Below, one piece after another: positions 2,984 through 52,296 of a stretch of 64,000 nucleotides of DNA. How positions within the stretch are numbered: the stretch's first letter is position 1; each line of letters opens with the position of its first letter. The notes beneath the pieces are model-generated. The model had not been told where the DNA came from. It saw only the letters and a program-made list of their open reading frames with translations, and ran no database searches. Source of the DNA: Chitinophagales bacterium (GTDB lineage: Bacteria; Bacteroidota; Bacteroidia; Chitinophagales; Chitinophagaceae); NCBI GenBank assembly GCA_038229695.1, contig JBBROE010000003.1, positions 16,006-80,005 of the forward strand, in the 5' to 3' direction. Both the position numbers and the translations under genes were made by a program.

Positions 2984-3113
2984 TGTCAGGAGGTTTAATG
3001 GGAAAAGGTTCGACCTTCTAATATACAAAAAAACAAGCGGCGGGAACGGGGCGGTTAAATTTTTTTGTTTTACAGCGGGGAGTCGTAAATTTCAGCATTA
3101 AACAGTACAGCAT

Positions 3114-3509
3114 ATGATAAAAATTTCCGACCTGAAACCAGGCGATATCGTAATGGCAGACTATGAGGGTAAACAATCGGAGGGCATTGTAACGGATTTG
3201 AACGGGGAGGATAAGGAAGTATGTGTGCAGACCGACGTGCAGAAGTTCTGGTTTAAGCCGGATCACCTGTCCCCGATCATGCTCGGCGATGAGCAGTTGA
3301 AGCAACTCGGATTCCAGCGGCAGGGGACGGAAGGCGTGGTAAAATACCTGAAAGGTGCGTTCAGGATCCAGCTGTCGCAGCAGGGAGGGTTCAATAGTTT
3401 AGAGATGTGGTACCGGGAAGACCGCCGGCACATGAAGCAGCCAATTGCCGTACATGAACTGCAGAACCACTACTACCAGATGACAAAAGTGGAATTGAAC
3501 GCCGATTAA
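3114..3509 (+). CDS. hypothetical protein (131 aa), no recognisable domain
   Basis: Clean ATG ORF transcribed divergently from the TPR gene. A strong terminator hairpin follows directly. Confidence 0.6.
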   Translation: MIKISDLKPGDIVMADYEGKQSEGIVTDLNGEDKEVCVQTDVQKFWFKPDHLSPIMLGDEQLKQLGFQRQGTEGVVKYLKGAFRIQLSQQGGFNSLEMWYREDRRHMKQPIAVHELQNHYYQMTKVELNAD

Positions 3510-3539
3510 CTCGCTTATAACCAGTTTTTTATCTATTTA

Positions 3540-3582
3540 GGGGAAATTTTCCTGAAAAAGGGGAAAATTTCCCCATTTTTTT
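3540..3582 (+). terminator. rho-independent terminator
   Basis: 13-bp stem GGGGAAATTTTCC (3540-3552) / GGAAAATTTCCCC (3562-3574), 9-nt loop, then A plus T7 (3575-3582). Confidence 0.8.
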
Positions 3583-3603
3583 CTTTATTCCGGCATCAAC
3601 CCG

Positions 3604-3611
3604 TATCTTTG
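3604..3611 (+). promoter_or_regulatory. Bacteroidota-type -7 promoter box (TAnnTTTG) for infA
   Basis: TATCTTTG lies 15 nt upstream of the infA ATG and directly after the terminator of the preceding gene. Confidence 0.5.
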
Positions 3612-3625
3612 CACACCCAAAAAAT

Positions 3626-3844
3626 ATGGCAAAACAGGCACTAATTAAACAGGACGGCGTTATAATTGAAGCACTGAGCAACGCAATGTTCAAGGTTAAA
3701 CTGGAGAACGGACACGAAATTCTGGCTACTATTTCAGGGAAAATGCGGATGAATTATATCCGTATCCTGCCGGGTGACAAAGTAGGTGTTGAAATGAGCC
3801 CATATGATTTGAGCCGGGGCAGGATAATTTTCAGGTATAAGTAA
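3626..3844 (+). CDS. infA: translation initiation factor IF-1
   Basis: 72 aa, [53 protein letters not shown].. is the canonical IF-1 S1-fold sequence. Confidence 0.97.
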
Positions 3845-3865
3845 TCATCATAATAATAACATCTC

Positions 3866-3982
3866 ATGAAAGTCAGGGCCTCTATTAAAAAACGCAGTGT
3901 AGACTGCAAGATTGTGAGAAGAAAGGGCAAGCTGTATGTCATCAACAAAAAAAATCCCCGTTTTAAACAGCGCCAGGGATAA
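3866..3982 (+). CDS. rpmJ: 50S ribosomal protein L36
   Basis: Hand-translated as [38 protein letters not shown]. It is too short for the ORF track and sits in the canonical slot between infA and rpsM. Confidence 0.95.
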
Positions 3983-4023
3983 ACAGCAAGCACAACAAAG
4001 TAAATAACAACTAAATAATAACT

Positions 4024-4404
4024 ATGGCCCGTATTGCCGGTGTTGACTTACCAAAAACCAAGCGTGGAGAAATAGGGTTGACCTATATTTTTGGCATTGG
4101 ACTTTCCACAGCCAAATATATCCTGGATAAGGCTGGTATCGATGTGAACAAGAAAGTGAACCAGTGGAACGATGATGAACTGACGGCTATCCGTAACATC
4201 ATCACCAATGAGTTCAAAGTGGAAGGCCAGTTGCGTTCCGAGGTGCAGACCAGCATCAAGCGCCTGCTGGATATTGCCTGTTACCGTGGCTTGCGTCATC
4301 GTAAAGGTTTGCCTGTCCGCGGACAGCGCACCCGTACCAACAGCCGTACCCGCAAGGGCAAACGGAAGACGGTTGCCGGTAAGAAGAAAGTAGCGAAGAA
4401 ATAA
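4024..4404 (+). CDS. rpsM: 30S ribosomal protein S13
   Basis: [26 protein letters not shown].. with a basic C-terminal tail. Conserved operon position. Confidence 0.97.
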
Positions 4405-4552
4405 GACTGCCGGGTGCAGCAATGCGTCCCGGGTTTTTATATGCACCAATTTTACTGGACCCGTTGCGGATGCCCGGTGCAGGAGCAGGGCGGGAACAGG
4501 TTCACAGCCGGATGGCAGTGAATACAAACCAATAAAGATTACCTACAGTACC

Positions 4553-4960
4553 ATGGCAAAAGCACAACAGCAGGCCAGCGCAAAGACCTCTACGAAAAAA
4601 AGAATCGTGCGGGTGGAAGCTTACGGCGACGCGCACATTTCAGCTAGTTTCAACAATCTTATTGTTAGCCTCACCAACAAACAGGGCCAGGTGATATCCT
4701 GGTCGTCTGCCGGTAAAATGGGTTTCCGTGGTTCCAAGAAGAACACGCCCTACGCTGCGCAGATGGCCTCTTCTGATGCTGCCAAGACAGCTATGGATGC
4801 CGGTTTAAAAAGGGTGGATGTATATGTAAAAGGTCCGGGTTCAGGCCGCGAAGGTGCAATCCGTGCGCTTGCCCAGTCCGGCATTGAAATCGTGCAAATT
4901 AAGGACGTGACGCCGTTGCCGCACAATGGCTGCCGTCCTCCGAAGAAAAGAAGGGTTTAA
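4553..4960 (+). CDS. rpsK: 30S ribosomal protein S11
   Basis: ..[44 protein letters not shown].. is a typical S11 sequence. Confidence 0.97.
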
Positions 4961-5102
4961 CAATTGCTGCCGGTCGTTTTAACGGTATCCGCCCCGGCGG
5001 TGCTGAAAAACTTTACCCGGCAATTGTATTTATAATGGGTGTACAATTCATTTTAGATTTTTACTGATTGTACGCCGTCATCAAAAAATCAACAAACAAA
5101 TT

Positions 5103-8787: not shown

Positions 8788-9216
8788 ATGAATATCGCGA
8801 TCATCAACGGTCCCAACCTGAACCTGCTCGGTAAACGCGAGCCCGGCATCTACGGTACCGAAGGCTTCGACAGCTTCCTGCTGCAATTGAAAGAGACGTT
8901 CCCGGACACGGTATTTTCTTATTACCAGAGCAATGTGGAAGGAGAACTGATCAGTGAAATCCAGCGGGTGGGTTTTACTGCAGCTGGTATTGTATTGAAT
9001 CCGGGGGGATATACCCATACCTCGGTGGCCATCGGCGATGCCGTGGCGGCCGTACCTGCGCCGGTAGTGGAAGTCCATATTTCGAATGTCCATGCCCGTG
9101 AGGAGTTCAGGCGGCTGTCCCATGTGTCCGCAAAGGCCGCGGGCAGCATTGCCGGGCTGGGATTGAAAGGGTATGAACTGGCCGTGCGGTGGTTGATCGA
9201 CCGGCCGCAGGCCTGA
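8788..9216 (+). CDS. aroQ: type II 3-dehydroquinate dehydratase
   Basis: MNIAIINGPNLNLLGKREPGIYG.. and NPGGYTHTSVAIGDA, VEVHISNVHAREEFR. The track ORF (8716) has an unsupported upstream extension. Confidence 0.93.
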   Translation: MNIAIINGPNLNLLGKREPGIYGTEGFDSFLLQLKETFPDTVFSYYQSNVEGELISEIQRVGFTAAGIVLNPGGYTHTSVAIGDAVAAVPAPVVEVHISNVHAREEFRRLSHVSAKAAGSIAGLGLKGYELAVRWLIDRPQA

Positions 9217-9224
9217 TTCTTCAT

Positions 9225-9854
9225 TTAGAGGAAAATGCGCATCAGCAGGGCGAAGCCGGTATCCTGCCTCGAATCTGAGGTTTTTTTGACAATATGAACG
9301 CCGCGGCGTGTCCACACCTTAAAAATTTCTCCTTTCTTTCTTTTAGCCAGTTCCCTGTCGATGAGGGGGATAATTGTTCCTTTGGCAATCCAGCCCAGGT
9401 CGCCGCGGGTGGCGCCTTCGCCGCCCATGCTATAGGTTTGCGCCAGGTCTTCAAAACTGGCGCTGTTATTCCTGAGCCTGAGGAGGATGCTGTTGGCCAC
9501 GGAATCAGCTATGCGTCGGCTGAATACACTGGTATCGATAAAAATCTGGCTGACGCGGGTGAATGTATTTGGCAGTCGGGCGAGGACCTCGACCAGTACC
9601 TTTCCTTCGTAAGGACCGTAAACTTTTTTCAGCGTGGCGGAGTATGCGAGGCTGTCGGCCAGCCCCGAAAAATGCGTGCTGTTGGTGATGGTCACCGTAT
9701 CGATCTTGTATTTTTTCTTCAGCGTTTCGCGGACATAGGCTACCGGGTTGGCGGCGTGTTCGATATTCGTTTTAATCTGCGCTACGGGCAGGGGCTGGCC
9801 CAGGCAATCGGCGGAAGCAATCAGCAGCAGGCAGGCGAACACAGTATTTTTCAT
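9225..9854 (-). CDS. secreted parvulin-type (PpiC) peptidyl-prolyl isomerase domain protein
   Basis: Signal peptide MKNTVFACLLLIASADC. The C-terminal part FEDLAQTYSMGGEGATRGDLGWIAKGTIIP..GEIFKVWTRRGVHIVK resembles a PpiC rotamase domain. Confidence 0.75.
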   Translation of the reverse strand: MKNTVFACLLLIASADCLGQPLPVAQIKTNIEHAANPVAYVRETLKKKYKIDTVTITNSTHFSGLADSLAYSATLKKVYGPYEGKVLVEVLARLPNTFTRVSQIFIDTSVFSRRIADSVANSILLRLRNNSASFEDLAQTYSMGGEGATRGDLGWIAKGTIIPLIDRELAKRKKGEIFKVWTRRGVHIVKKTSDSRQDTGFALLMRIFL

Positions 9855-33987: not shown

Positions 33988-34179
33988 TGCGCCGCAAACT
34001 AACTGCTTATTAACTGGTTTTCAGCAAATTTATTGTGAAAATTTGATGTGCAGCCGCCTGCGGGCCAATGTACGACAACGATTAATTTAACGACCGGAAG
34101 CGTGCCGGTTGCACGGGAGGGGCGCAGCCTAAACCGGCCATTGTCGGTTTTCTGGTTAACTTTACGCAATACCTCCATT

Positions 34180-34578
34180 ATGGCTAAATTTTTCGATGCC
34201 GATGACACCCTCAAACGGCTGCGTAACCGGTACCGGCTGGTGGTGATGAACGACGATACCTACGAGGAAGTGGTCACGTTCAAACTGTCGCGGATGAGCG
34301 TATATATCCTGCTGAGCACCATTTTCGTAGTGCTGACCGGTCTCACCGTAGCCCTCATCGTATTTACCCCGCTGAAGTTATACATACCCGGTTATGGAGA
34401 TGTGAATAATACCCGGGAGCTCCGTGAACTAAAACTGCGTACGGATTCGTTAGAGCATGCGGTACGGTACAAAGATGAGTACCTGCAGAACATCCGGGGG
34501 GTATTACAGGGCAATGTTTCGGTGAAACCCGATACGGCCGCCCTCAACCTGCCGACGCCGGAAAAAATTAACGATTAA
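34180..34578 (+). CDS. single-pass membrane protein resembling the N-terminal (non-catalytic) part of Bacteroidota M23 peptidases
   Basis: Start refined to MAKFFDADDTLKRL; one TM (VYILLSTIFVVLTGLTVALIVF), then a coiled-coil-like segment. No HxxxD/HxH catalytic region before the stop. Confidence 0.55.
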   Translation: MAKFFDADDTLKRLRNRYRLVVMNDDTYEEVVTFKLSRMSVYILLSTIFVVLTGLTVALIVFTPLKLYIPGYGDVNNTRELRELKLRTDSLEHAVRYKDEYLQNIRGVLQGNVSVKPDTAALNLPTPEKIND

Positions 34579-34590
34579 AAATCCAATACC

Positions 34591-35019
34591 ATGTTCAAAG
34601 GAAAATCCAATTCAGAATTTCTCGCAGAAACCAGCGGAAACAATGCGGCCAGCCTGATTAGTGCCGGTACTACTCTTACCGGTGATTTGCAGTCGACCGC
34701 CGACCTGCGTATCGACGGTACGCTGGTCGGGAATATCATCAGTACGGCTAAAGTGATTATTGGCGCCAACGGCGTGGTGCAGGGAGATATCAACGGGCAG
34801 CTGGCTGATATTATGGGCAAGGTTACGGGATCCGTGAAAGTAAAGGAATTGCTCCAGCTGAAGGGCAGCGCCGAGATCAAGGGCAATATTCACGCCGGGC
34901 GGCTGCAGGTGGAACCTACCGCGACTTTCAACGGCGAATGCCACATGAATACTGCATCTCCTGATAAAAAAGCGGTGGAGAAACAGGCCGAAAAACAACA
35001 CATTGCAACCGTCCAGTAA
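34591..35019 (+). CDS. bactofilin-family cytoskeletal protein
   Basis: SLISAGTTLTGDLQSTADLRIDGTLVGNIISTAKVIIGANGVVQGDINGQLADIMGKVTGSVKV.. is a typical beta-helical bactofilin (DUF583) repeat pattern. Confidence 0.88.
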   Translation: MFKGKSNSEFLAETSGNNAASLISAGTTLTGDLQSTADLRIDGTLVGNIISTAKVIIGANGVVQGDINGQLADIMGKVTGSVKVKELLQLKGSAEIKGNIHAGRLQVEPTATFNGECHMNTASPDKKAVEKQAEKQHIATVQ

Positions 35020-35038
35020 CAACAACAATAAAGATTTA

Positions 35039-35221
35039 ATGCGTTACGCCGGCCTGGCCACGCAAATGCTGGCCGGACTGGGCGTAGCTGTTTTTGCCGG
35101 CCTCAAATCCGATAAGTGGCTGAAGCTTTCTTTTCCCTTATTGTCCTGGTTGCTACCTTTGCTGGTACTGGGCGGTATCCTCTACCGGATAATAAAAGAC
35201 ACCAGCCCGGGGAAGAAATGA
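35039..35221 (+). CDS. AtpZ/AtpI-family small membrane protein
   Basis: Start refined to MRYAGLATQMLAGLGVAVFAGLKSDKWL..; two TM helices, ~60 aa, as in AtpZ. Confidence 0.6.
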   Translation: MRYAGLATQMLAGLGVAVFAGLKSDKWLKLSFPLLSWLLPLLVLGGILYRIIKDTSPGKK

Positions 35222-35625
35222 GCGCAGACAAGCAACGGTTTAAGGCCACGTTACCCCTCTATATTTTATTTTTGATCGTCAACGCTGTACTCTGGCTGCT
35301 GCCGGGCAGGCTGGCCGCACTGGGGCTATCGGTTACGGTGGTAATGGCAGGAAATGCCCTGCTTTTCCTGGTCAGCCTGGCCTCTCTTTTTCTTTACCAG
35401 CGTGCTATGCTGCATCCCGCCACGATTGGATTTCTGAAGAATACATACAGCGGATTATTCCTGAAGCTGCTGGTCTGCCTGTTTGCGGTAGTTACTTATA
35501 TCGGTATTGGTAAGCGCCAGGTAAACAAGCCTGCTATTCTAACCTGCGTGGGCTTATACTTTATCTATTCCCTGCTGGAAATGCGCGGCCTGCTGCAGTG
35601 GAACAAATCCCGCAATAATGCCTAA
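35218..35625 (+). CDS. four-TM membrane protein (AtpI-like?)
   Basis: Start refined to MSADKQRFKATLPLYILFL.., whose ATG overlaps the AtpZ-like stop (ATGA). Four hydrophobic segments. Function not established. Confidence 0.55.
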   Translation: MSADKQRFKATLPLYILFLIVNAVLWLLPGRLAALGLSVTVVMAGNALLFLVSLASLFLYQRAMLHPATIGFLKNTYSGLFLKLLVCLFAVVTYIGIGKRQVNKPAILTCVGLYFIYSLLEMRGLLQWNKSRNNA

Positions 35626-49285: not shown

Positions 49286-50131
49286 TCATCGATTTTTTTT
49301 CTCAGCTGATGGCGATGGTACTCCATCAAAAAATTTCCTGAAAAATATCAGTTGGTAGTCGATGCTGTTTTTCCAGTAGGCTGCGGAGTGCATGCCGGGT
49401 CGCTCGGCGTAGTCATGTTCAATCTGCAGTTTTAATAGTTTCTGATGGAGGCTTCGGTTGGGAAAGATCAGAAAGTCATAGATGCCGCAATCGATCGTGA
49501 TTTTCAGCTCCCGGTTTTTGAGATGGTTGACGAGGTTGATGACGGAGTTGTCTTGTAAGTTGGCCAGCCCGGCTGTGCTGTCCCCAAACAGCGATTTAAA
49601 ATTCATTCCTTTCGGGAAAAAAGACAGATCGACCAGCCCGCTGGTAGAGCCAGCAGCGCCGAAAATACCGGTATGGCGTATGGCAAGGTACAGTGCGCCG
49701 TGGCCGCCCATACTCAACCCGCTGATCGCGCGGTGATAACGATCTGCCACGGTAGGGAATACGCTGTCGATATGCTGCACCAGTTCCAGCGCTGTGAAGC
49801 TGTCATAACGGATAGAATCGTTGACCGGACTGTCCACGTACCAGCTACCATAGCCCCCGTCGGGACAGACGATGATCAGGTTCAGATCGTCCACTTTGGA
49901 TTTTAACTGCGGTGCCACGGTGAGCCAGCGGGCATAGTTGCCGGCATATCCGTGGAGGAGGTAGAGTACGGGGTAACGTCGTCCGGATGTTTTGGCCGAT
50001 GAAGGCGTGACGACCACGCAGCGTATCGTTTTATGCATGGCGGTGCTGTAGACGTCGATGGTATCGACGCGGCCGGCACGGGAGCATAAAAAAAACAGGG
50101 ATGCCGTAATGAGCAGGATGATTTTTTTCAT
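49286..50131 (-). CDS. secreted esterase (alpha/beta hydrolase, putative-esterase/esterase D-like family)
   Basis: Signal peptide; YPVLYLLHGYAGNYARW and nucleophile elbow GLSMGGHGAL. Confidence 0.8.
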   Translation of the reverse strand: MKKIILLITASLFFLCSRAGRVDTIDVYSTAMHKTIRCVVVTPSSAKTSGRRYPVLYLLHGYAGNYARWLTVAPQLKSKVDDLNLIIVCPDGGYGSWYVDSPVNDSIRYDSFTALELVQHIDSVFPTVADRYHRAISGLSMGGHGALYLAIRHTGIFGAAGSTSGLVDLSFFPKGMNFKSLFGDSTAGLANLQDNSVINLVNHLKNRELKITIDCGIYDFLIFPNRSLHQKLLKLQIEHDYAERPGMHSAAYWKNSIDYQLIFFRKFFDGVPSPSAEKKNR

Positions 50132-50240
50132 GATGTGAGTCGTCGCACGAAACTACTAGGTTTGCCTGAATCGCGGTACAGGGGGAGGATGAAAAGGCTG
50201 GCGGTGGATAAATTGGCGGTTTCCTGAGTAAGGATTTGTG

Positions 50241-51105
50241 CTGCTTCCCGGCAACGTCTCCCTGACGGGTACGTTGCGGTCTTTCCAGGAATATTTTTTC
50301 GCAAAAGTTGTCATTCCTACTTTTTGCTTCGCCAAAAAAGTAGGTAAAAAAGGTAACCCGAAAACGATGACGGTCCGTTACCTCCGCTGCTTCCCGGCAA
50401 CGTCTCTCTGACGGGTACGTTGCGGTCTTTCCAGGCATATTTTTTCGCAAATGTTTTCATTCCTACTTTTTTGCTTCGCCAAAAAAGTAGGCAAAAAAGG
50501 CGACCCGAAAACGAGGACAGCCGTTTTCGGGGGGTACTTCGGGGAGCTGTTGTGCTCAGAGGTGAAGGGCAGCGGGGCACTGGTCAGCGCCTTAGATCTG
50601 GCCTGTGAAGGATCGGTAACTGATGTTGACGATAAATTAAGGCTGAGTATCAATCGCAGAATCTTTTCATCCTTTAATCGGTCTAATCCTAATTCAGACA
50701 ATAGCCGGCACAGCACCCCGAAAACAACAACGGCCCGTTTCCTCCGCTGCTTCCCGGCAACGTCTCTCTGGCGGGTACGTTGCGGTCTTTCCAAGCATAT
50801 TTTTTCGCAAATGTTTTCATTCCTACTTTTTTGCTTCGCCAAACAAGTAGGCAAAAAAGGCGACCCGAAAACGAGGACAGCCGTTTTCGGGGGGTTCTTC
50901 GGGGAGCTGTTGTGCTCAGAGGTGAAGGGCAGCGGGGCACTGGTCCGCGCCTTAGATCTGGCCTGTGAAGAATCGGTAACTGATGTGTAGGACCCATCAA
51001 GGTTAAGCATTAACCGGAACACCTTTTCATCCTTCCATCCGTCTAATTGTAATTCAGCCAAGAAGCGGCAACGGCGACCCGAAAACGAGGAGAGCCGTTT
51101 TCGGG
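50241..51105. repeat. tandem array of a modular three-hairpin element (copies of ~140, 360 and 360 bp)
   Basis: Direct reading: CCTCCGCTGCTTCCCGGCAACGT.. recurs at 50381 and 50741 (exactly 360 bp apart), with a shortened copy from 50241. There are 6 mismatches in the first ~246 nt of the two long copies. Three conserved stem-loops per unit; coordinates are in the findings. Confidence 0.9.
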
Positions 51106-51136
51106 TTGCTACAGTAATCGGGTAGGGCCGCGGAAA

Positions 51137-51171
51137 TAATTTTGACATATCAGTACAATTTAATAATTTTG
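51137..51171 (+). promoter_or_regulatory. two TAATTTTG -7-type promoter boxes upstream of the SPFH gene
   Basis: TAATTTTG at 51137-51144 and 51164-51171. The second overlaps the inverted repeat TGATAT-N7-ATATCA (51170-51188). ATG at 51206. Confidence 0.4.
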
Positions 51172-51205
51172 ATATCATATTAATATCATTATAAAACTAT
51201 CTGCT

Positions 51206-52084
51206 ATGGAAAAAGAAATAAAAACCATCCCTGGTTTCCTCGCCTTAATCATGGCCATTTTTTCACTAATTGGCGCCATCACTTGTTTTGTAACCGGTGC
51301 CGGTCCGGGCCACAGCAGCAAGAGCGGCCTGCTCCTGCTGGGTTTTGTGCTTGTCCTGGTTTCAGTTTTTCTGTTTAAGGGTATCATGATCGTAAATCCC
51401 AATCATGCCCGCGTATGTACGTTTTTTGGGAAGTATGTAGGCACCGTAAAAGAGAATGGGTTACGGTGGATCAACCCGTTTTTTTCTAGTTACCGGATTT
51501 CGCTGCGCTCGCAGAATCTCAATGGCCAGCAGCTGAAGGTCAACGACAAAATGGGGAACCCGATTGAAATTGCGGCCGTAATTGTATGGCAGGTTAGCGA
51601 CACTTACCGCGCATCTTTCGAGGTGGCCGATTACCAGCAGTATGTTGGCATCCAGAGTGAAGCTGCGGTAAGGCACCTGGCATCGACCTGTCCTTATGAC
51701 CAGATGGAAGACCAGACTGCCGAAATAACCCTTCGGGATGGTGGGGAGAAAGTAAATGAAATGCTGGAGCAGGAACTGGCCGACAGGCTGGCCCCGGCAG
51801 GAATACTGATCAAGGAAGCTCGGATCAGTCACCTTGCCTATGCCCCTGAAATAGCGGGGGCGATGCTGCAGCGGCAACAGGCCACGGCCATCGTGGCGGC
51901 ACGGTTTAAAATTGTGGAAGGCGCGGTGGGCATGGTTGAGCTGGCACTGGAGATGCTCAGCAAAAAGAATATCGTAAATCTGGACGAGGAGAAGAAAGCC
52001 GCGATGGTGAGTAACCTGATGGTGGTACTCTGCGGAGAAAAAGCGGCGACACCGGTTTTGAATACCGGCACGCTTTACCAGTAA
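51206..52084 (+). CDS. SPFH/band-7 domain membrane protein
   Basis: Two N-terminal TM helices, then IVNPNHARVCTFFGKYVGTVKENGLRWINPF..IEIAAVIVWQVSD..AVRHLAS.. and an Ala-rich coiled C-terminus typical of the stomatin/prohibitin-like fold. Confidence 0.88.
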   Translation: MEKEIKTIPGFLALIMAIFSLIGAITCFVTGAGPGHSSKSGLLLLGFVLVLVSVFLFKGIMIVNPNHARVCTFFGKYVGTVKENGLRWINPFFSSYRISLRSQNLNGQQLKVNDKMGNPIEIAAVIVWQVSDTYRASFEVADYQQYVGIQSEAAVRHLASTCPYDQMEDQTAEITLRDGGEKVNEMLEQELADRLAPAGILIKEARISHLAYAPEIAGAMLQRQQATAIVAARFKIVEGAVGMVELALEMLSKKNIVNLDEEKKAAMVSNLMVVLCGEKAATPVLNTGTLYQ

Positions 52085-52110: not shown

Positions 52111-52296
52111 ATGGCAGATAAAAAAACTTTTGTACTGCGGATAGATGAGCAGGTCTACAAATTGCTGGAGAAGTGGGCTGCGGATGATTTCCGGAGTGTA
52201 AATGGCCAGATTGAGTGGCTCATCGATCAGCAGCTCAAATCTTCCGGAAGGATGCGCGGGGGCAAAGCACCGCAGGGCGGCAAGCCCGGGAAATAG
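52111..52296 (+). CDS. Arc/MetJ-type ribbon-helix-helix DNA-binding protein
   Basis: KKTFVLRIDEQVYKLLEKWAADDFRSVNGQIEWLIDQQLK follows the Arc pattern (beta strand, helix, RS.N..I..L helix). Basic Gly/Lys tail. Confidence 0.6.
   Translation: MADKKTFVLRIDEQVYKLLEKWAADDFRSVNGQIEWLIDQQLKSSGRMRGGKAPQGGKPGK

Follow-up and report, generated by a model that had tools for sequence, protein, structure and literature searches.

What occupies the 1,074-bp gap between an esterase gene (open reading frame, ORF, 49286..50131, minus strand) and an SPFH gene (ORF 51206..52084, plus strand), and whether it acts as protein, as RNA or as DNA, is the question raised by the 64,000-nucleotide stretch of Chitinophagales bacterium DNA analyzed here (contig JBBROE010000003.1; the whole stretch is referred to as the window). 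We found that approximately 866 bp of the gap, at 50240-51109, is a non-coding insert made up of a tandem array of hairpin modules, and that this array belongs to a small, undescribed mosaic intergenic repeat family in Bacteroidota. The family is lineage-restricted and non-coding, and its known copies come from related soil Bacteroidota. As to function, our leading but tentative explanation, to which we give slightly less than an even chance, is that the array encodes tandem terminator-capped small-RNA (sRNA) cassettes. Coordinates are given in window numbering and the minus strand is taken as the functional orientation. The initial annotation of the window had called this its largest non-coding gap; the size is correct and the rank is plausible but unproven, as two longer stretches without large ATG-start ORFs (2984-5102 and 33988-35617) contain ORFs of 126-176 aa.

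Tandem Repeats Finder (TRF) reported a period of 360 in 2.0 copies (50357-51061, 90% matches) and a period of 146 in 2.0 copies (50240-50525, 92%), confirming a tandem array with the periods proposed initially. Units B (50381-50740) and C (50741-51100), 360 bp apart, were compared without gaps and differed at 48 positions, six of them in the first 246 nt (97.6% identity) and 42 in the last 114 nt (approximately 63% identity), in agreement with the near-identical start and diverged tail described earlier. Gapped alignment added just one compensating indel pair, within the last hairpin. All three hairpin types that had been listed were recovered at the same positions, far above chance. These are hairpin 1, GCAACGT-N13-ACGTTGC, hairpin 2, CCTACTTTTTT..AAAAAAGTAGG, and a third hairpin (H3), CCCGAAAACG-N8-CGTTTTCGGG, for which three matches were found against a chance expectation of 0.02. 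Their positions are collected in Table 1.

The description of the array as three copies of one element was revised. A 36-nt H3-type motif, CCCGAAAAC, occurs five times with spacings of 147, 213, 147 and 214 nt, and the array is therefore composed, in plus-strand order, of X_A, X_B, Y_B, X_C and Y_C. Two module types, X and Y, with a terminal hairpin in common describe it better than three copies of one unit do. The X module (approximately 147 nt) contains hairpin 1, a spacer, hairpin 2 and H3, and the Y module (approximately 213 nt) terminates in H3 or in its variant h3'. These variants had been regarded as decayed third hairpins; because they recur at the same position in other loci, they represent a recurrent variant and not random decay. 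Read on the minus strand ("forward"), the full unit consists of a 42-nt T block (TTGTCTGAATTAGGATTAGACGGATTAAAGGATGAAAAGATG), a leader, a 101-nt S core, H3, GCGCC with T6, hairpin 2, an A-rich spacer, hairpin 1 and h3'. The five 36-nt motifs also support the earlier proposal that the short copy A is a unit from which some 213-220 nt were lost between sub-repeats.

BLAST, covariance-model and motif searches of the 64-kb window found no second copy. Other copies were obtained by using the spurious 266-aa ORF of the array as a protein bait and then collecting the contigs of matching spurious ORFs. Four further loci (L009, L022, L023 and L024) were identified in this way, with modules 70%–92% identical to those of the window, and a fifth family protein (P0124) derives from another NCBI contig. 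The neighbours at these loci were a GH43 gene together with a gluconolactonase-like gene, or an M16 peptidase gene, with an IMS-family polymerase gene a few genes downstream at L009, and every locus adjoins at least one gene 5' end. Units occur with or without the T block, four leader types and partial S copies were seen, and module order and number differ between loci, the L024 array being approximately 1.2 kb long. Since the modules recur among unrelated genes in different order, they constitute a dispersed mosaic repeat family and not a local duplication. It is thus very improbable that the array is a mere recent local duplication or assembly artefact with no wider family, an idea which draws on the 97.6% identity of units B and C over 246 nt and on the contigs of close relatives that break inside the array. 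Related modules stand at other loci in independent assemblies, from at least five sources, and the divergent tails of B and C are old alleles, also found in other loci.

Among 1.84 billion representative proteins, a protein search returned just five family ORFs, all spurious, which suggests that the family is rare, and 90%-identity protein clusters contained no additional copies. The exact Y-core pattern AAGGGCAGCGGGGCANTGNTC gave chance matches only in GTDB species genomes, JGI metagenomes and IMG/VR; these negatives say little on distribution because the pattern is too strict and tolerates too little variation, and by inspection the cores in L022, L023 and L024 fail to match it. In IMG/VR, patterns for the T block, hairpin 2 and H3 with GCGCC gave no match and the Y-tail pattern gave one chance match, and blastn against plasmids and phages gave no match. 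We also considered the orthologous esterase-SPFH spacer in relatives, a comparison that had been proposed at the outset. Two relatives whose SPFH proteins are 87% and 84% identical to that of the window (L003 and L007) have the same gene order, with spacers of 212 and 329 bp that contain no array module; the window spacer minus the array measures 208 bp. These empty sites are too diverged to place the insertion point in the window. A covariance-model search of approximately 42 kb of relatives' DNA found no copy. In the closer relatives L001 and L002 (SPFH coding DNA 96%–98% identical) the array end is present and the contigs break inside the array. Both of these contigs (L001 1-100 and L002 1-100) terminate inside its last Y module.

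Several observations concern array boundaries and variation. The flanking gene and the first two units have the same sequence in L023 and L024, as far as L024:1532; beyond this point the two contigs contain different paralogous units (L023 2966-3248, L024 1533-1814), reflecting either strain-level or population variation of the array or a chimeric assembly. At L009 (plus strand of the locus, 9160-9200) a partial S fragment (..GGCTGACCAATGCCCCGCTGCTGG..) follows the last full Y and is fused directly to a T block, and similar core-to-T fusions are found at approximately 1625-1650 of L024; breakpoints appear to recur inside the S core. At 9720-9760 the L009 array stops only some 20 nt short of the start codon (9752) of a 117-aa ORF without a Pfam match, and its last T block is truncated after TTGTCTGA, placing the boundary within the T block. 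Just outside the arrays, inverted partial T-block copies were noted in the window (GGGAGGATGAAAAGG, 50183-50197) and at L022 (CTAATCCACTTTTAATC, 649-665). The match in the window is weak (E = 0.48) and was dropped as a candidate terminal inverted repeat; these copies could be chance matches or what is left of inverted units.

On the minus strand the S core is predicted to fold into a closing stem, P1 (AAGGCGC/GCGCCUU), around a 55-nt C-rich unpaired region and H3, followed by U6, and P1 and H3 were predicted in 6/6 forward copies folded. This fold explains the 5-nt "spacer" between H3 and the T-run: the spacer is GCGCC, which forms the 3' side of P1. The TCGCC-TTTTTT that had been reported after the third hairpin on this strand was confirmed at two of the three perfect H3 sites; the site at 51078 has TCGCCGTTGCC instead. 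Within the unpaired region lies a conserved C-rich block, GCCCCGCUGCCCUUCACCUC, containing CACCUC[C/U]UU. A covariance model of S and hairpin 2 scored the two window copies at 159 and 154 bits.

Maintenance of the pairing was examined in an alignment of nine S and hairpin 2 copies. In this alignment 95.3% of the cells assigned to pairs were paired, compared to 49%–59% when partners were slid by 1-3 columns. Compensatory changes were seen in the AT-rich hairpin 2, where three pairs have changed on both sides (C-G to G-C, A-U to U-A), and hairpin 1 showed single-sided changes only, mostly wobble. Of the 12 matched copies of the S core, 11 have exactly the same length, 101 nt, despite 29%–30% divergence in the variable segments of S. 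Among seven paralogues, identity was highest in the H3 arms and the hairpin 2 core (97% each), followed by the T block (90%–93%) and the conserved S block GCCCCGCTGCCCTTCACCTC (91%), and was lower in the H3 loop (78%) and the S middle segment (approximately 71%). As the T block and the S block, among the best-kept segments, are non-palindromic, hairpin maintenance alone is insufficient to explain this conservation.

Four features bear on the strand. All nine S copies that precede hairpin 2 carry U6 after P1. In the unpaired region of every copy C/(C+G) is 0.69-0.81 on the minus strand. A terminator scan gave the same orientation in the window (U-tracts 50853-50858 and 50493-50498) and at L009, and in all forward folds the predicted P1 stem abuts U6, the sequence arrangement of an intrinsic terminator. 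Single-sided stem changes tallied as approximately 10 G.U against 4-5 A.C on the minus strand. Together, the U6, the C skew, the terminator orientation and the wobble tally favour minus-strand terminator-capped RNA cassettes, and the minus strand is most likely the working strand.

In the scheme that we propose, each S module would be an intrinsic-terminator-capped RNA on the minus strand, comprising closing stem, C-rich loop, H3 and U6, and the conserved C-rich block GCCCCGCUGCCCUUCACCUC would form the interacting surface of tandem paralogous sRNAs. The arrays are built from a small set of conserved modules, namely the T block, alternative leaders, the S core, H3 with its U-tract, the AT-rich hairpin 2, the A-rich spacer and hairpin 1. 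They would change through tandem duplication of units and through recombination at the hairpins that modules have in common, by which modules are lost or exchanged. We infer such a history for the window array: S and X of units B and C, at 97.6% identity, would reflect a recent duplication or a conversion tract, and their T and leader parts would be old alleles, the L009 leader being a probable mosaic of B-type and C-type sequences. Copy A would descend from a unit in which Y was lost between a pair of H3-type motifs, and the hybrid H3/h3' at 50346-50380 the deletion or recombination joint that produced it. Whether or not an sRNA is made, minus-strand transcription that enters from the side of SPFH would encounter, ahead of the esterase promoter, three successive terminator-like sites, with U-tracts at 50853, 50493 and 50346.

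A more specific version of this scheme is speculative and in our view improbable. Here the S modules would be a new tandem sRNA family of Chitinophagaceae, with a C-rich loop held by the terminator stem, that pairs with purine-rich sites of Shine-Dalgarno type or titrates a C-rich-RNA-binding protein, and the T block would be a non-canonical promoter or operator. The C-rich block (GCCCCGCUGCCCUUCACCUC[C/U]UU / CACCUC[C/U]UU) resembles the anti-Shine-Dalgarno end of 16S rRNA (..CACCUCCUU), a resemblance noticed post hoc. Shine-Dalgarno-led initiation is rare in Bacteroidota.

A number of results weigh against the sRNA explanation. The wobble asymmetry does not reach significance (p of roughly 0.1), and both strands fold about equally well compared with shuffled sequences (z-scores of approximately -2 to -4), so that folding energy is uninformative on strand. 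Covariation is confined to hairpin 2, H3, P1 and hairpin 1 being almost invariant, and in an extended T-leader-S alignment the covariation term was positive (+2.69), which counts against the predicted consensus fold; a conserved long-range fold of T, leader and S was dropped on this basis. The canonical Bacteroidota promoter box TAnnTTTG (PMC7366714) was found on neither strand inside any array, and a canonical promoter within X or Y was dropped accordingly. Some S copies also lack a T block, and with no internal box independent transcription of each cassette is therefore unsupported, although the T block could itself be a non-canonical promoter. Compared with their orthologues in L002 and L001, the T block and H3 loop closest to SPFH have diverged at an approximately neutral rate (identity at 4-fold-degenerate sites in the same comparison was 86% and 91%), and the unit C T block differs at five positions from the consensus kept by L002, over the 33 nt that overlap the L002 contig; at least the SPFH-proximal copy is therefore unconstrained or drifting. 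Finally, metagenome assemblies of repeats are possibly chimeric, as L023 and L024 illustrate.

Table 1. Positions of the array and its modules in the window, listed after the whole array from the SPFH side to the esterase side.
Feature	Position	Strand	Details
Whole mosaic array	50240..51109	-	TRF, motif spacing and B/C comparison; spacer of L003/L007 without array
Terminal H3 by SPFH promoter region	51074..51109	-	H3 match 51078-51105; stem extended GCGAC/GTTGC; no U-tract after; stem retained and loop replaced in L001/L002
T block, unit C	51020..51061	-	Degenerate, TTGGCTGAATTACAATTAGACGGATGGAAGGATGAAAAGGTG
S core, unit C (101 nt)	50853..50953	-	P1 5' strand 50947-50953; C-rich conserved block 50919-50938; H3 50864-50891; P1 3' strand and U6 50853-50863
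Hairpin 2, unit C	50822..50851	-	CCTACTTGTTTG-GCGAAG-CAAAAAAGTAGG; one mismatch; family-wide compensatory changes at three pairs
Hairpin 1, unit C	50757..50783	-	GCAACGT-N13-ACGTTGC
h3' at X_C / Y_B junction	50717..50740	-	Comparable variant at the same position in L009 and L023
T block, unit B	50660..50701	-	Close to family consensus, TTGTCTGAATTAGGATTAGACCGATTAAAGGATGAAAAGATT
Type-a leader, unit B	50594..50659	-	Invariant small hairpin ATCGTCAAC-ATCA-GTTACCGAT
S core, unit B (101 nt)	50493..50593	-	Conserved block 50559-50578; H3 50504-50531; U6 50493-50498
Hairpin 2, unit B	50462..50491	-	
Hairpin 1, unit B	50397..50423	-	
Hybrid H3/h3' at X_B / X_A junction	50346..50380	-	Closed by GGTAAC/GTTACC, then T6 (50346-50351)
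X_A	50240..50345	-	Hairpin 2 (50316-50344, one base shorter), A-rich spacer, hairpin 1 (50251-50277)

The array is not protein-coding. A repeat protein would have been read from the 266-aa minus-strand ORF (50378-51178) or from a 179-aa plus-strand ORF, and such a product might be suspected from the long open frames on both strands and from the fact that one frame has been called as a gene: P0121, a 256-aa "hypothetical protein" in public collections, is translated from 50378-51145 (minus strand) of the array. We regard this call as spurious and the chance of a repeat protein as next to negligible. Several frames are open on both strands simply because stop codons are rare in the array sequence. 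The codon-level conservation that the initial annotation had named as a check was not found: differences between B and C, and between the window and L009, lack codon periodicity, and in the frame of the 266-aa ORF the variable columns are distributed 11/12/13 by codon position, without third-position excess, at a ratio of nonsynonymous to synonymous substitution (dN/dS) of approximately 1.1. Copies also differ by frame-breaking 1- and 2-nt indels, the amino-acid identity of the hits (61%–64%) is below the nucleotide identity, and every homologue is itself a spurious ORF that lies on a copy of the element. A type I toxin was likewise dropped as a candidate: there is no conserved small ORF, and by reading, the window candidates are interrupted or frame-shifted in the L009 and L024 copies.

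The main rival to sRNA cassettes is a selfish or neutral DNA repeat of the BIME/BOX type (BIME, bacterial interspersed mosaic element), in which the hairpins matter as DNA, either as cruciform or single-stranded substrate for a recombinase or transposase acting in trans or as recombination hot spots, and no dedicated RNA is made. We rank it first among the rivals, though still as less likely than not. It accounts for the mosaic build, for the lack of promoters and for the drift of the terminal copy. The variable module order and partial units, the lineage-specific presence at the orthologous site, the lack of internal promoters found and the near-neutral divergence of the terminal T block and H3 loop all fit it, the high identity of paralogues may come from concerted evolution, and the compensatory hairpin changes suit DNA hairpins as well as RNA. 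Neither the constancy of U6 nor the strong excess of C over G on one strand has an obvious DNA-level reason, however, and the best-kept non-hairpin blocks (T and S) are neither palindromic nor placed at array ends. The single-unit locus L022 has no terminal inverted repeats, no transposase or REP-associated tyrosine transposase (RAYT) gene was seen near the loci in relatives and other contigs, and both the density (one locus in 64 kb, none in approximately 42 kb of relatives' DNA) and the five spurious ORFs in 1.84 billion proteins are low for such a repeat. A cis-regulatory or insulator cassette, with the GGATTA-like direct repeats of the T block (spacing of approximately 9-10 bp) as an operator array and the terminator-like modules insulating promoters that are divergent or adjacent, seems quite unlikely. 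The highly conserved, non-palindromic, phased T block, the position of every locus beside a gene 5' end and the three terminator-like sites upstream of the esterase gene would suit a cassette of this kind, but the neighbouring genes are functionally unrelated, the two genes stand side by side in relatives that lack the array, and conservation of the SPFH promoter boxes does not depend on its presence. No T-like site was found elsewhere in the window, and the T copy nearest to SPFH is decaying.

We next compared the array with known families. Mosaic repeats such as the BIMEs of Escherichia coli and BOX of Streptococcus pneumoniae are intergenic and non-coding, combine a few modules in variable order and number, form stable hairpins and occur as tandem clusters at scattered loci. 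The window array shares this modular, variable-order, hairpin-bearing build in an intergenic tandem cluster; we know of no sequence similarity between them. The LDR and QUAD/Sib loci of E. coli are also intergenic tandem repeats of a few hundred bp in which each unit has hairpins and a terminator; they are type I toxin-antitoxin systems, with a small hydrophobic toxin and an antisense RNA encoded in each unit, whereas the array copies share no conserved small ORF. On one strand the array resembles an intrinsic terminator, as a G+C-containing stem runs straight into a U-tract (H3, with P1 adjoining U6); it differs in that the stem is interrupted on its 5' side by the conserved 55-nt insertion, the unit is tandemly repeated and most loci are not at a gene 3' end. 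The Rfam check gave no matches for the whole window at gathering thresholds in Rfam 15, whose families include riboswitches, Bacteroidota sRNAs and IS-associated RNAs, and at permissive thresholds the window and L024 arrays gave chance-level matches only (E ≥ 0.2), with no family recurring convincingly.

A repetitive extragenic palindromic (REP) unit is a 20-40 bp palindrome, tagged at one end by an unpaired GTAG or CGTC, and REPs are located mostly downstream of genes (PMC3733652). In the array GTAG (hairpin 2) and CGTC (hairpin 1) lie inside paired stems, and the GTAG of hairpin 2 is replaced by GTAC or GGAAC in other copies. The conserved units are longer (42-213 nt), the hairpins are all direct and not in inverted pairs, the loci adjoin gene 5' ends, and density seems low, with one locus in 64 kb and none in the relatives' DNA searched. 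No transposase or RAYT was found among Pfam labels within approximately 8 kb in relatives or in a Pfam scan of the flanking genes of the other loci. For a miniature inverted-repeat transposable element (MITE), L022 lacks terminal inverted repeats and, by eye, a target-site duplication, a result that applies to L022 only. The "spacers" between H3 copies are themselves repeated modules and no cas Pfam label is present near the relatives' loci, which does not correspond to CRISPR; among the genes labelled or scanned near the loci in relatives and other contigs there were no cas or reverse-transcriptase domains. A hammerhead-like CUGAUG motif, an integron attC site and invertible-promoter inverted repeats were dropped by inspection, their defining features being absent. 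Of the three options originally offered for the array, the mosaic intergenic element thus holds, a structured non-coding RNA is viable for the minus strand, and the hallmarks of REP and MITE are missing, the latter as judged at L022.

Within the same phylum, the FopS and GibS sRNAs of Bacteroides are multicopy (PMC11697453, PMC7366714). By analogy, the S module may share the design of FopS, in which a terminator comes after a conserved region that is unpaired (PMC11697453). FopS genes possess canonical sigma-ABfr promoters (PMC11697453), whereas no canonical promoter was seen in the arrays, and the FopS seed is 5'-terminal, whereas the conserved block of the array is enclosed by a closing stem. 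According to the same paper FopS copies lie at multiple loci, not in tandem mosaic arrays, and the FopS structure has been deposited in Rfam (PMC11697453), yet nothing in Rfam 15 matches the array region. The array belongs to neither BIME/BOX nor FopS.

This work adds a mosaic intergenic repeat family to Bacteroidota. To our knowledge, few mosaic repeats or sRNAs are known in this phylum outside gut Bacteroides. The arrays also have practical consequences, as they break short-read assemblies (the two close-relative contigs end inside the array) and seed spurious gene calls such as the 256-aa P0121. Transcription of the S modules would make them a rare example, in soil Chitinophagaceae, of terminator-capped sRNAs that are amplified in tandem and share a conserved C-rich loop; if they are silent, the array would be a selfish or neutral repeat of an ordinary kind, acting mainly by putting terminators between adjacent genes.

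Both neighbouring genes were examined through their orthologues, which carry the Pfam domains Esterase and Band_7 (SPFH). The esterase-side end of the array lies 108 nt upstream of the esterase start codon. Between this codon and X_A there is an exact TAnnTTTG box, TAGGTTTG (50157-50164, plus strand), directed into the array; if active, it would drive plus-strand transcription of the whole array towards SPFH, and the plus strand of the array has no U-tract terminators. A similar box, TAGATTTG, starts at 614 (plus strand) of L022, approximately 120 nt upstream of the element and in forward orientation. On the SPFH side, AATAATTTTGA[C/T]AT occurs twice, 27 bp apart, at 51135-51175 (plus strand), and each copy contains the canonical Bacteroidota -7 box TAATTTTG (51137-51144 and 51164-51171). 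The region is approximately 97% conserved in L001/L002 and recognizable in L003 and L007, and for this reason the SPFH gene may have tandem promoters that are independent of the array. Directly 3' of the SPFH gene, a 61-aa ORF (52111-52296, plus strand) corresponds in position to genes of 61-64 aa called in L002, L003 and L007, and is likely a small conserved partner gene of the SPFH protein.

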